From: Escherichia coli
GTDB lineage: Bacteria; Pseudomonadota; Gammaproteobacteria; Enterobacterales; Enterobacteriaceae
NCBI RefSeq assembly: GCF_024502345.1
Contig: NZ_JALDNN010000001.1
DNA: 64,000 nucleotides
Reading direction: 5' to 3' (one strand)
The notes under the pieces were generated by a model. It saw only the letters and a list, made by a program, of their open reading frames with translations. It did no database searches and had not been told where the DNA came from. A program made the position numbers and the translations under genes. Shown here in pieces: positions 4,478 through 8,577 of the stretch (positions are counted from its first letter, which is position 1; each line of letters starts with the position of its first letter).

Positions 4478-5548
4478 ATGGCAGGACTGAAATTACAGGC
4501 AGTAACCAAAAGCTGGGATGGCAAAACCCAGGTGATTAAACCGCTGACCCTTGATGTGGCGGATGGCGAATTTATCGTGATGGTCGGGCCGTCAGGCTGC
4601 GGGAAATCGACGCTGCTGCGCATGGTTGCCGGGCTGGAGCGGGTGACGGAAGGCGATATCTGGATCAACGACCAGCGGGTGACCGAAATGGAGCCGAAAG
4701 ATCGCGGGATTGCGATGGTGTTCCAGAACTACGCGCTTTATCCGCATATGAGTGTTGAAGAAAACATGGCGTGGGGGCTGAAAATTCGCGGCATGGGCAA
4801 GCAGCAAATTGCCGAGCGCGTTAAAGAAGCAGCGCGCATTCTGGAACTGGACGGTCTGCTTAAGCGCCGCCCGCGCGAGCTTTCCGGCGGTCAGCGTCAG
4901 CGTGTGGCGATGGGTCGCGCGATTGTGCGCGATCCGGCGGTGTTCCTGTTTGATGAGCCGCTCTCTAACCTCGATGCCAAGCTGCGCGTGCAGATGCGCC
5001 TTGAGCTGCAACAGCTGCACCGTCGCCTGAAAACGACTTCACTCTACGTTACTCACGATCAGGTTGAAGCGATGACGCTCGCCCAGCGAGTAATGGTGAT
5101 GAACGGCGGCGTTGCCGAACAGATTGGCACACCAGTTGAAGTCTACGAAAAGCCCGCCAGCCTGTTTGTAGCGAGTTTTATCGGCAGTCCGGCGATGAAC
5201 CTGCTGACAGGCCGCGTGAATAACGAAGGCACGCATTTCGAACTGGACGGCGGTATTGAGCTGCCGCTAAACGGTGGCTACCGTCAGTATGCCGGGCGTA
5301 AAATGACTCTCGGCATTCGCCCGGAACATATTGCGCTAAGCTCGCAGGCAGAAGGCGGCGTACCGCTGGTGATGGACACGCTGGAGATCCTCGGCGCAGA
5401 TAACCTGGCGCACGGACGCTGGGGCGAGCAGAAGCTGGTGGTGCGACTGGCGCATCAGGAGCGCCCGACGGCAGGCAGCACGCTGTGGCTGCATCTGGCG
5501 GAAAATCAGCTGCATCTTTTTGATGGTGAAACAGGACAACGAGTATGA
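4478..5548 (+). CDS. ugpC: sn-glycerol-3-phosphate ABC transporter ATP-binding protein
   Basis: ORF track 4439..5548; start reassigned to ATG 4478 ([11 protein letters not shown]...), 356 aa, immediately after the ugpE stop at 4474-4476. Walker [10 protein letters not shown]. Confidence 0.95.
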
Positions 5549-6288
5549 GTAACTGGCCTTATCCCCGCATCGTCGCTCATCGTGGCGGCGGTAAGCTGGC
5601 CCCGGAAAACACCCTGGCGGCAATCGACGTCGGGGCAAAATACGGTCATAAGATGATCGAATTTGACGCGAAGTTATCGAAAGATGGCGAGATCTTCCTG
5701 CTCCATGACGACAATCTCGAACGCACCAGCAACGGCTGGGGCGTCGCGGGTGAACTGAACTGGCAGGATTTACTGCGCGTGGATGCGGGCAGTTGGTACA
5801 GCAAAGCGTTTAAAGGTGAGCCGCTGCCGTTGCTTTCGCAGGTGGCGGAACGCTGTCGCGAACACGGGATGATGGCGAATATCGAAATCAAACCCACCAC
5901 TGGCACTGGACCATTAACGGGCAAAATGGTGGCGCTGGCGGCACGCCAACTGTGGGCCGGTATGACGCCGCCGCTGCTGTCATCGTTTGAGATTGATGCT
6001 TTAGAAGCTGCACAGCTGGCGGCACCGGAACTGCCGCGTGGTTTATTGCTTGATGAGTGGCGCGACGACTGGCGCGAACTGACCGCGCGGCTGGGCTGCG
6101 TCTCTATTCATCTCAATCATAAGTTACTCGATAAAGTGCGAGTGATGCAGTTGAAAGACGCCGGACTGCGGATTCTGGTTTATACCGTCAATAAACCCCA
6201 GCGCGCGGCAGAGTTGCTGCGCTGGGGCGTGGATTGCATCTGTACCGATGCGATTGACGTGATTGGTCCGAACTTTACGGCCCAATAG
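5545..6288 (+). CDS. ugpQ: Glycerophosphodiester phosphodiesterase
   Basis: 247-aa ORF; start overlaps the ugpC stop (ATGA at 5545-5548); GP-PDE-type N-terminus (VAHRGG). Confidence 0.95.
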
Positions 6289-6715
6289 TTTTCAACGGAA
6301 TGTCAGGCTGCGGCGTGCTGGGCTGATTCAGCATGTCGCCGTTTCTCCTCTCCGGCAGCATATGCTGCTGATTCAACGAACTATCCGGATTACGGTTGCT
6401 GTTTAACATCCCGCCGTTGGTGTTGGGCAGCATTTGCTGCCGGGCGGGATTTCGCTCCCCCGGCTGTGACTGCAACACCCGCTGAGAATTATTGTTTATC
6501 TGGTTTTCTAAATGCTGCTGTTGCAACTGAGTTTGCGTTTTCAGTTGCTGATTCAGCATCCCTTTTTGCTGGATTTGCTGAGTCTGCATCTGGGTTTGCA
6601 TCCGCTGCTGGCTGGGTATCTGATACCCCGGCTGGTTAGGGTTGTTCAGAGTATTAATGGGCTGTGCAAAGCCGACAAACGGCAGGAGTGCCGTAAGAAT
6701 CAGAAGTCGTTTCAT
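6275..6715 (-). CDS. yhhA: Q/N-rich secreted protein of unknown function (YhhA)
   Basis: 146-aa ORF with N-terminal signal peptide ([17 protein letters not shown]) followed by a strongly Gln/Asn-rich low-complexity sequence; its 3' end overlaps the ugpQ 3' end by 14 bp (convergent). Confidence 0.85.
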
Positions 6716-6834
6716 CGCGTATCCTCCTCTGAAGATATCCTTTAAGTTTACTCGCTTCCCGACAAAACGATGATTAATTCAGAGTTATATACCAGGCTTA
6801 GCTGGGGTTGCCCCTTAATCTCTGGAGAATAACG

Positions 6835-8577
6835 ATGATAAAACCGACGTTTTTACGCCGGGTGGCCATTGCTGCTCTGCTCTCAGGAAGTTGTTTTAGC
6901 GCCGCCGCCGCGCCTCCTGCGCCGCCCGTCTCGTATGGTGTGGAGGAAGATGTCTTCCACCCGGTACGCGCGAAACAGGGAATGGTAGCGTCTGTGGACG
7001 CCACTGCCACTCAGGTGGGGGTGGATATTCTCAAGGAGGGCGGGAATGCCGTTGATGCCGCCGTGGCGGTGGGCTACGCGCTGGCGGTAACGCATCCGCA
7101 GGCAGGGAATCTGGGCGGTGGTGGTTTTATGTTAATCCGCTCGAAAAATGGCAATACCACGGCTATCGATTTCCGCGAAATGGCACCCGCCAAAGCGACC
7201 CGCGATATGTTCCTCGATGATCAGGGCAACCCGGACAGCAAAAAATCACTCACTTCGCATCTGGCTTCCGGCACACCGGGTACGGTAGCAGGTTTCTCGC
7301 TGGCGCTGGATAAATACGGCACCATGCCGCTGAACAAAGTCGTGCAGCCCGCGTTTAAACTGGCACGCGATGGTTTTATCGTTAACGACGCGCTGGCTGA
7401 CGATCTCAAAACCTACGGTAGCGAAGTGTTGCCGAATCACGAAAACAGTAAAGCTATCTTCTGGAAAGAGGGCGAGCCGCTGAAAAAGGGCGACACGCTG
7501 GTGCAGGCGAACCTGGCAAAGAGCCTGGAGATGATTGCTGAAAACGGCCCGGACGAATTCTATAAAGGCACGATTGCGGAACAGATCGCCCAGGAGATGC
7601 AGAAAAACGGTGGCTTGATCACTAAAGAAGATTTAGCGGCCTATAAAGCGGTCGAACGCACTCCGATAAGCGGCGATTATCGCGGGTATCAGGTTTACTC
7701 CATGCCACCGCCATCCTCCGGCGGGATCCATATCGTACAAATCCTCAATATTCTGGAAAACTTCGATATGAAGAAATACGGCTTTGGCAGCGCCGATGCG
7801 ATGCAAATCATGGCAGAAGCGGAGAAACACGCCTACGCCGACCGCTCGGAATATCTTGGCGACCCGGATTTTGTCAAAGTCCCGTGGCAGGCACTGACCA
7901 ATAAAGCCTATGCCAAATCCATTGCCGATCAAATTGATATCAACAAAGCGAAGCCGTCCAGTGAGATTCGCCCTGGCAAGCTTGCGCCTTATGAGAGTAA
8001 TCAAACTACCCATTACTCAGTGGTGGATAAAGATGGTAACGCGGTGGCGGTGACCTATACGCTGAACACCACCTTCGGTACGGGCATTGTCGCGGGCGAG
8101 AGCGGTATTCTGCTTAATAATCAGATGGATGATTTCTCCGCTAAACCGGGCGTACCGAACGTTTACGGGCTGGTGGGCGGTGATGCCAACGCCGTCGGGC
8201 CGAATAAACGTCCGCTGTCGTCAATGTCACCAACGATTGTGGTGAAAGACGGTAAAACCTGGCTGGTCACCGGTAGCCCTGGCGGGAGCCGGATCATCAC
8301 TACAGTGCTGCAAATGGTGGTGAATAGCATCGATTATGGCATGAACGTCGCCGAAGCGACCAATGCGCCGCGTTTCCACCATCAGTGGTTGCCGGACGAG
8401 CTGCGTGTCGAAAAAGGGTTTAGCCCGGATACGCTCAAGCTGCTGGAAGCAAAAGGTCAGAAAGTGGCGCTGAAAGAGGCGATGGGCAGTACACAAAGCA
8501 TTATGGTTGGGCCGGACGGTGAGTTGTACGGCGCATCCGACCCGCGCTCGGTGGATGATTTAACGGCGGGGTACTAA
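6835..8577 (+). CDS. ggt: Gamma-glutamyltranspeptidase
   Basis: ORF track 6808..8577; start set at ATG 6835 (MIKPTFLRRVAIAALL...), 580 aa; signal peptide and recalled Ggt sequence. Confidence 0.95.
   Translation: MIKPTFLRRVAIAALLSGSCFSAAAAPPAPPVSYGVEEDVFHPVRAKQGMVASVDATATQVGVDILKEGGNAVDAAVAVGYALAVTHPQAGNLGGGGFMLIRSKNGNTTAIDFREMAPAKATRDMFLDDQGNPDSKKSLTSHLASGTPGTVAGFSLALDKYGTMPLNKVVQPAFKLARDGFIVNDALADDLKTYGSEVLPNHENSKAIFWKEGEPLKKGDTLVQANLAKSLEMIAENGPDEFYKGTIAEQIAQEMQKNGGLITKEDLAAYKAVERTPISGDYRGYQVYSMPPPSSGGIHIVQILNILENFDMKKYGFGSADAMQIMAEAEKHAYADRSEYLGDPDFVKVPWQALTNKAYAKSIADQIDINKAKPSSEIRPGKLAPYESNQTTHYSVVDKDGNAVAVTYTLNTTFGTGIVAGESGILLNNQMDDFSAKPGVPNVYGLVGGDANAVGPNKRPLSSMSPTIVVKDGKTWLVTGSPGGSRIITTVLQMVVNSIDYGMNVAEATNAPRFHHQWLPDELRVEKGFSPDTLKLLEAKGQKVALKEAMGSTQSIMVGPDGELYGASDPRSVDDLTAGY

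Follow-up and report, generated by a model that had tools for sequence, protein, structure and literature searches.

A minus-strand open reading frame (ORF), yhhA, lies within a 64,000-nucleotide stretch of Escherichia coli contig NZ_JALDNN010000001.1 (assembly GCF_024502345.1), referred to here as the window, and encodes a product so rich in glutamine and asparagine that an initial annotation described it as a secreted, low-complexity protein of prion-like composition. What kind of protein YhhA is, and what it may do in the cell, is the question raised by this locus. In this study, we report that yhhA is a real, conserved, translated and stress-induced gene confined to the Enterobacteriaceae, a conclusion that is strongly supported, and that the mature protein is predicted to consist of a conserved Q-rich helix with non-heptad periodicity and disordered flanks. 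The best overall explanation is that YhhA is a non-enzymatic periplasmic stress protein, a reading to which we give a probability of roughly 0.4. The positions of the features discussed are collected in Table 1.

The ORF begins with ATG and ends with a TAA codon at 6275-6277, and its 441 nt encode 146 amino acids. Searches with curated hidden Markov models (HMMs) matched residues 1-105 to the Pfam family DUF2756 (PF10956; E=1e-60, 202.9 bits against a cut-off of 21) and residues 1-146 to the NCBIfam equivalog PRK10350 (NF007675; E=1.5e-79, 265 bits against a cut-off of 136). The nucleotide sequence is 100% identical to the allele of K-12 MG1655 and BL21, and the RefSeq E. coli label at the locus, which is flanked by ugpQ and ggt, reads 'yhhA: DUF2756 family protein'. 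The ORF can be identified with near certainty as yhhA (b3448 in K-12), the founding or reference member of DUF2756. It is a previously annotated, known gene without an assigned function, and the finding is in that respect real but ordinary. The initial annotation had called the function unknown, and no paper assigning one was found in the literature.

The gene was found in 5424 of 5426 complete E. coli genomes, and the locus was exactly 441 nt long in 59 of 60 complete genomes sampled evenly down the ranking. Pairwise comparison with other Escherichia lineages gave ratios of nonsynonymous to synonymous substitution (dN/dS) of 0.05-0.12, indicating strong purifying selection; conservation of the ORF across the Enterobacteriaceae, which the initial annotation had named as a check, was borne out. 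A GGAGG-like element occupied the position equivalent to the Shine-Dalgarno sequence in 13 of 13 genera in the upstream alignment. The protein itself has been observed. YhhA peptides were detected by mass spectrometry in heat extracts of Shiga toxin-producing E. coli, together with the periplasmic proteins SodC, PspE, ZraP, RbsB and YmgD (PMC9731836), and YhhA was also detected by mass spectrometry in Salmonella Infantis (PMC4265081). In the proteome of extended-spectrum beta-lactamase E. coli it was 1.7-3.1-fold up at beta-lactam concentrations below the minimum inhibitory concentration (PMC9927464).

These observations bear on the possibility that the ORF is merely a chance frame in CAG/CTG-rich DNA with no real gene behind it. 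Further ORFs of 43-77 amino acids overlap yhhA on the opposite strand, so the sequence evidently tolerates open frames; those ORFs, however, are Leu-rich mirror images of Gln codons. Against the curated HMM matches, the strong Shine-Dalgarno sequence and ATG, the low dN/dS, the synteny in 80 species and the peptides seen by mass spectrometry, the probability of a chance frame is practically nil. Three plus-strand ORFs of 47-77 amino acids lie antisense to yhhA (6263-6406, 6466-6639 and 6512-6745), and are Leu/Ala-rich mirrors of the CAG/CAA-rich sense strand. ORFs antisense to yhhA are regarded as artefacts, unsupported as genes.

Glutamine and asparagine account for 19.9% and 12.3% of full-length YhhA, and for 22.5% and 14.0% (36.4% together) of the mature chain (residues 18-146, 129 residues), which has a grand average of hydropathy (GRAVY) of -1.40. 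Among the 68 ORFs of at least 120 amino acids in the window, the median Q+N content was 8.2% (standard deviation 3.9%) and the next highest value 16.7%. The best 80-residue stretch of YhhA (residues 21-100) contained 36 Q/N residues, compared with 16 in the runner-up ORF. This enrichment is far beyond chance. The description of a signal peptide followed by Q/N-rich repeats holds, since signal-peptide features are present, the sequence is Q/N-rich and degenerately repetitive, and the peptides that had been quoted, NQINNNSQ among them, occur in it. Tandem Repeats Finder detected no DNA tandem array in 6200-6800; the repeats are short dispersed direct repeats and degenerate peptide repeats.

A composition of this kind could mean that YhhA is a true prion-like or amyloid protein, the Q/N region of which would self-template beta-aggregates, as yeast prion domains or curli subunits do, either in the periplasm or on the cell surface. 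The 36 Q/N residues in 80 exceed the Michelitsch-Weissman cut-off for prion-like composition (at least 30 Q+N per 80 residues), a content shared with yeast Q/N prion domains and with CsgA/CsgB; Q/N richness combined with Sec export is likewise found in curli subunits, YhhA stands far outside the range of the other ORFs in the window, and it has a proline-free stretch of 50 residues. Prion domains, however, keep their composition rather than their sequence, and drift of sequence and length is expected of them, whereas the Q-rich core of YhhA is a confidently predicted alpha-helix that is conserved residue by residue and at near-fixed length across genera, under strong purifying selection. The core is moreover Q-rich rather than N-rich, and the remainder of the protein is 10.9% proline. 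In the Pfam scan neither Curlin_rpt nor any other second family matched YhhA at E<=1, and the neighbourhood consists of ugpQ and ggt only, with no csg context and no dedicated secretion or nucleator partner. We consider an amyloid role very unlikely, and the term 'prion-like' is valid for the composition of YhhA only.

The structure of the core was examined in an AlphaFold2 model built with a 25-sequence alignment, for which the mean predicted local distance difference test value (pLDDT) was 62 and the predicted template modelling score (pTM) 0.28. In the proline-punctuated segment that opens the mature protein, the N-N-P-N-Q-P-G-Y columns were 64-88% conserved, with a pLDDT of about 53 and no secondary structure. 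The helix that follows spans 49 residues, 24 of which are Q or N, contains no proline and was modelled with block pLDDT values of 72-93. Its columns carried at most 4% gaps in the alignment, the exceptions being homologue P0174, with a 17-residue deletion within the helix, and P0083, with a 29-residue insertion just before it. Hydrophobic residues at positions 39, 43, 54, 58, 69, 73 and 80 were 83-100% conserved, M43 being invariant, and Q47, Q50, Q61 and Q72 were 92-100% conserved.

The conserved helix positions recur every 15 residues, defining the units 36-50, 51-65 and 66-80. Self-correlation of the helix profile gave peaks at shifts of 15 (z=2.6), 30, 19, 11 and 4, and the hydrophobic power spectrum reached 26.9 at 3.75 residues per turn, compared with 0.08 at 3.5, the period of a canonical heptad coiled coil. 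This periodicity argues against both a canonical heptad coiled coil and featureless low complexity; the label 'low-complexity' is apt as regards Q/N richness, but undersells a core with a specific 15-residue period. The nearest geometric counterparts are the non-heptad, right-handed 15-residue coiled coils of the VASP tetramerisation domain and the pentadecads of trimeric-autotransporter stalks. YhhA resembles these in its three consecutive 15-residue units, in hydrophobic residues spaced at i/i+4, in conserved Gln at other stripe positions and in the lack of heptad power, and differs in having a very narrow hydrophobic stripe and in remaining unbundled when two copies were modelled in tandem. 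The likeness is one of geometry, without homology. A search of all PDB sequences with the family profile gave no match at E<=10.

Of the 64 residues of the C-terminal tail, 10 are Pro and 5 are Gly, and the tail is predicted to be disordered. Two QQ(H)MLP-x4-5-G(G/D)MLN units (residues 93-105 and 116-130) are repeated within it, the G-x-MLN motif occurs in three copies in YhhA, and in Escherichia-like members the tail ends with the motif PQPxIPLKTIxP. An exact 13-nt repeat, GCTGATTCAGCAT, is found at 6322-6334 and 6547-6559 and encodes MLNQ each time. The length of the tail is variable (20-68% gaps in the alignment), and short family members lack it entirely. In E. albertii YhhA, one of the two tail repeats is absent.

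YhhA is in all likelihood exported to the periplasm, as judged by its N-terminus. This combines a basic n-region (K2/R3 in MKR), a 13-residue hydrophobic core and G(-3)/F/A(-1) followed by QP, which agrees with the rules for Sec export and signal peptidase I (SPase I) cleavage, namely a basic n-region, an h-region of 7-15 residues, small residues at -3 and -1 and no Pro at +1. A17, L10 and M1 were at least 90% conserved among the 25 homologues, and AlphaFold2 modelled the signal peptide as a separate helix. The whole of YhhA has no cysteine and therefore no lipobox, which excludes it from the lipoproteins processed by SPase II. Sec export with cleavage after A17, which would yield a periplasmic protein of 129 residues, has good support from these features and from the type of extract in which YhhA was detected.

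The signal peptide also bears on a proposal (bioRxiv 10.1101/364117) that traces to a listing in SecretEPDB, according to which enteropathogenic E. coli secretes YhhA as a type III effector, with clusters of S/TQ and QS/T motifs imitating substrates of the host kinases ATM/ATR. Mature YhhA does contain 7 S/TQ and 4 QS/T dipeptides, but S/TQ dipeptides are expected from composition alone at 22% Q, and a cleavable Sec-type signal peptide, as predicted, would route the protein to the periplasm. No link to pathogens bearing a type III secretion system was seen; on the contrary, yhhA belongs to the E. coli core genome, occurs in non-pathogenic, environmental and plant-associated genera such as Buttiauxella, Kosakonia and Phytobacter, and is present as the identical allele in K-12 MG1655 and BL21, laboratory strains not known to carry the type III system of the locus of enterocyte effacement. 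The published effector label is doubtful, and an effector role for YhhA appears to us scarcely credible.

Several published data sets indicate when yhhA is expressed, and it is probably under sigma-S/general and envelope stress control. A peak for RpoS holoenzyme was found by genomic SELEX (systematic evolution of ligands by exponential enrichment) within the ggt/yhhA spacer (PMC5493296), and in O157:H7 yhhA was up-regulated together with rpoS and rmf on transition to stationary phase (PMC2241611). It was an up-regulated hub gene over antibiotic, oxidative, cold, heat and nitrosative stress data sets (PMC9501238), was induced by acid (PMC2270276, PMC7824302), and rose 5.6-9.9-fold upon treatment with a LolCDE inhibitor, with elaB, ycaC, raiA and ytfK (PMC5105897).

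In a 13-genus alignment of the upstream spacer, TAAACTTAA is invariant or at least 90% conserved. A scan of 6000-7000 gave no sigma-70 promoter site; it is for its conservation across genera that we propose TAAACTTAA as part of the yhhA promoter. The extended -10 consensus of sigma-S is KCTAYRCTTAA, and its likeness to TAAACTTAA suggests that the latter may act as a sigma-S -10 element. Elsewhere in the yhhA-ggt spacer (6791-6814), on the ggt-leader side, a plus-strand block of 10 nt, ACCAGGCTTA, is invariant in the 13 genera; it is adjoined by a small hairpin (GGGGTTGCCCC in E. coli), the stem of which is kept while its sequence changes across these genera. A CRP or sigma-54 site in the invariant upstream block TAAGCCTGGT was considered and rejected, as neither consensus fits by eye. 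An Rfam scan of 5500-7500 gave no match at E<=1.

From these elements a role for YhhA can be proposed. Transcription would be driven by a promoter of sigma-S type, located in the 120-nt spacer that separates yhhA from ggt, at entry into stationary phase and under acid, antibiotic or envelope stress, a step suggested by the published omics data and the conserved -10-like element. After Sec export and cutting behind Ala17, a Cys-free, net basic and very hydrophilic protein of 129 residues would be released into the periplasm. It is predicted to comprise a short Pro-rich segment, one Q-rich alpha-helix of about 7 nm made up of three 15-residue units, in which conserved Met/Leu/Ile form a narrow stripe between near-invariant Gln residues, and a Pro/Gly/Asn tail, disordered and bearing repeated 'G-x-Met-Leu-Asn' stickers. 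The helix could offer a specific surface for docking or self-association, its non-heptad geometry resembling that of right-handed or 11/15-residue repeats of helices of the late embryogenesis abundant (LEA) or apolipoprotein type, and the tail may add weak multivalent contacts. As no catalytic features were seen in YhhA, a non-enzymatic action in the stressed periplasm is proposed, and we infer that this might be a protective, holdase-like or hydrophilin-like one towards envelope components. Such a mechanism of protective binding is offered tentatively and with low confidence, as a possibility well short of an even chance.

The closest known systems for such a role are the hydrophilins and LEA-type proteins and the small RpoS-dependent periplasmic proteins of the OsmY, Asr and YmgD type, with which YhhA shares small size, high hydrophilicity, extensive disorder and induction in stationary phase or stress. 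The period of its helix, near 3.67-3.75, is also akin to that of the 11-mer LEA and apolipoprotein repeats. YhhA differs from hydrophilins and LEA-type proteins in having no sequence homology to them, in a glycine content below the hydrophilin threshold and in being Gln-rich rather than Lys/Glu/Ala-rich.

The conserved methionines suggest another use for the protein. Together with His68/His118 they could make YhhA a disordered periplasmic buffer for Cu(I)/Ag(I) like SilE/PcoE, or a sink in which Met is sacrificed to HOCl-type oxidants and then restored by MsrPQ. SilE and PcoE are small, exported and disordered, and gain helix upon metal binding; YhhA is alike in its length of about 140 amino acids, its signal peptide, its disorder and its conserved Met/His, the spacing of which would place them on a single face of a helix. 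Seven Met occur in the 129 mature residues (5.4%), and at positions 43 (25/25), 103 (17/19), 119 (14/15) and 128 (11/12) it is Met in particular, and not just a hydrophobic side chain, that is retained, as is H118 (12/15); M39-x3-M43 would share one face of the helix. Nevertheless, scans of Pfam and NCBIfam gave no HMM similarity to metal-resistance families, the His/Met motifs are far fewer than in SilE, and yhhA is unlinked to metal-resistance genes, cus and cop included, and to msr genes. None of the retrieved expression papers reports induction by copper or silver, and several of the conserved Met would suit a place in the helix core or a role as stickers just as well. We judge a metal or oxidant buffer to be unlikely.

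YhhA could alternatively be a Gln-zipper, a non-heptad helix of 15-residue repeats that reversibly oligomerises or condenses through its Q-rich core and Met-Leu 'stickers'. We give this little credence; if true, YhhA would be a periplasmic stress factor of a new kind, building a protective phase or scaffold when Enterobacteriaceae enter stationary phase or suffer envelope stress, and in effect a functional protein with a prion-like domain outside the cytoplasm.

A number of points weigh against our proposal of a non-enzymatic periplasmic stress protein with a periodic binding helix. The periodicity is modest, as the spectral peak was reached by 42 of 1000 shuffles, and 48 residues cannot separate a period of 3.67 from one of 3.75. 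When two copies of mature YhhA were modelled in tandem by AlphaFold2, with the natural 64-residue tail as linker, the helices were kept and did not pack (pTM 0.27, helix pLDDT down to about 70); self-association thus finds no computational support, although this modelled negative is a weak one. Some rare alleles of E. coli have gained or lost stretches of arbitrary length, in frame, within the helix, and its exact length may therefore be non-essential in the short term. Recognition of the signal peptide followed sequence rules and not a trained predictor. The hydrophilin definition asks for a mean hydrophilicity above 1, which YhhA reaches (GRAVY -1.40), and for more than 6% glycine, of which it falls narrowly short (5.4% in the mature and 5.5% in the full protein). 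Finally, the literature found contains no experiment on the function of YhhA and no yhhA phenotype.

The 14-bp convergent overlap of the 3' end of yhhA with ugpQ, as initially annotated, is present in the window, and recurs in related species. The stop-to-stop overlap occurred in 69 of 79 species loci and ranged from 4 to 23 nt (4 nt in 32, 14 nt in 14, 17 nt in 10 and 20 nt in 7), the other 10 having a gap. The mRNAs are mutually antisense owing to this overlap, and reciprocal regulation may be added to the proposed role of the protein. A published survey of 58 MG1655 RNA-seq samples names yhhA-ugpQ as one of 165 convergent transcript pairs that overlap in at least 50% of them, and by this overlapping 3' transcription it counts as a convergent excludon (PMC12288877). 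On the yhhA strand, a candidate terminator was found 48-85 nt inside ugpQ. The minus-strand RNA of 6180-6290 folds at -45.7 kcal/mol (z=-4.85), and none of 200 shuffles was as stable; the hairpin at 6196-6227 may plausibly serve as the terminator of yhhA. Its stem is kept in 24 species without covariation (term +0.25) and coincides with conserved ugpQ codons (P-Q-R / R-W-G), and the U-tract is variable; constraint on the RNA is therefore inseparable from constraint on the UgpQ protein. For the ugp operon, the terminator-like hairpin found inside yhhA has a fold no more stable than shuffles (z=-0.52). A SELEX peak for sigma-28 (FliA) holoenzyme lies inside ugpQ (about 5545-6288), between yhhA and ugpC (PMC5493296).

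The overlap could be taken to mean that the locus is chiefly regulatory, with the yhhA and ugp transcripts forming an 'excludon' in which stress-induced transcription of yhhA tunes ugpQ/ugp, or the reverse, and the protein is secondary. The frequency of the overlap across species, the place of the pair in the MG1655 convergent excludome and the stable hairpin with its U-tract inside ugpQ are in keeping with this. The length of the overlap varies, however, with a gap in some species, and the hairpin lacks covariation over its conserved ugpQ codons. Strong purifying selection on the protein and its detection by mass spectrometry indicate that YhhA is not secondary, so that a chiefly regulatory locus seems improbable. 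An antisense-regulatory function is compatible with a periplasmic stress role for YhhA, and is not an alternative to it.

Table 1. Features of the yhhA locus, with positions in the window
Feature	Position	Strand	Basis or detail
yhhA coding sequence (146 codons plus TAA stop)	6275..6715	minus	ORF translation, HMM matches, RefSeq annotation, dN/dS
Predicted Sec-type signal peptide, residues 1-17, predicted SPase I cleavage before Q18	6665..6715	minus	Rule-based sequence reading
Proline-punctuated N-terminal segment of mature YhhA, residues 18-33	6617..6664	minus	Conservation and AlphaFold2
Predicted Q-rich helix, residues 34-82	6470..6616	minus	Single AlphaFold2 helix, conservation, periodicity
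Predicted disordered C-terminal tail, residues 83-146	6278..6469	minus	pLDDT 42-54, no secondary structure
Shine-Dalgarno sequence GGAGGA	6722..6727	minus	6 nt 5' of the yhhA ATG, read from sequence
Candidate sigma-S-type -10 element TAAACTTAA of the yhhA promoter	6742..6750	minus	Spacer alignment; predicted start near 6738
ugpQ	5545..6288	plus	
Overlap of yhhA and ugpQ 3' coding ends, 14 nt	6275..6288	convergent	Coordinates
Candidate intrinsic terminator of yhhA within the ugpQ coding sequence	6190..6227	minus	Stem CCCCAGCGC/GCGCUGGGG (6196-6227) then UUUAUU (6190-6195)
Weak terminator-like hairpin for the ugp operon, inside yhhA	6310..6339	plus	Pattern scan: 13 pairs then CGTTTCTCCT

An exhaustive HMMER scan of 1.84 billion representative proteins returned 65 DUF2756 matches at E<=1e-3, many of them fragments, and a scan of one genome per species (100,044 species) found 123 loci. 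Synteny was counted on 80 of these that were kept, all from genera of the Enterobacteriaceae, and DUF2756 is a tiny family restricted to that group. Genera with yhhA include Escherichia, Citrobacter, Enterobacter, Buttiauxella, Kosakonia, Atlantibacter, Phytobacter, Leclercia, Lelliottia, Cedecea, Trabulsiella and others. The flanking genes were convergent ugpQ in 79 of 80 species loci and divergent ggt in 78 of 80, and the yhhA-ggt spacer measured 117-132 nt across them and 120 nt in this locus. A divergent homologue of 93 amino acids is still convergent with a GDPD (ugpQ-like) gene.

What the analysis adds to this already annotated gene is the architecture of YhhA, the candidate sigma-S -10 element and the conservation of the ugpQ overlap, and it raises caution against two labels, 'prion-like' and 'validated type III effector'. 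As a core, strongly conserved, stress-induced and protein-producing gene among those of E. coli K-12 that are still uncharacterised, yhhA is a modest lead within the Y-ome.

Other homologues were seen in different settings. The divergent 106-amino-acid P0180 (L083:313-633) is convergent not to ugpQ but to an mlaF-E-D-C-like phospholipid-transport operon, a different envelope-related context. An 87-amino-acid homologue, P0168 (L081:4001-4264, JGI metagenome contig Ga0157361_1000017), lies in a moron-like position between phage head/protease-portal and terminase genes of a prophage-like region; tblastn against 50,697 phage records gave no match to it. A ugpQ-yhhA-ggt locus of typical enterobacterial form was also present in record L036 (CACSKA010000004.1), which is labelled 'Chryseobacterium sp. 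18061' and closely resembles the neighbouring 'Citrobacter sp. 18056' record of that project; this points to mislabelling or contamination of the assembly.

Rare in-frame length variants of YhhA were present in public E. coli sequences (96-163 amino acids; P0001-P0035, P0092 and P0037), at 6470-6616 (residues 38-66) and 6326-6439. These duplications and deletions have short repeats such as QTQ, QQ and MLNQ at their borders, and nearly all fall within the Q-rich helix. In E. coli strain A16, from an otter (NZ_CP028758.1, H70), which is among the very few E. coli genomes lacking an intact yhhA, only 47% of the gene was matched (query 234-441), indicating a truncated or disrupted allele.

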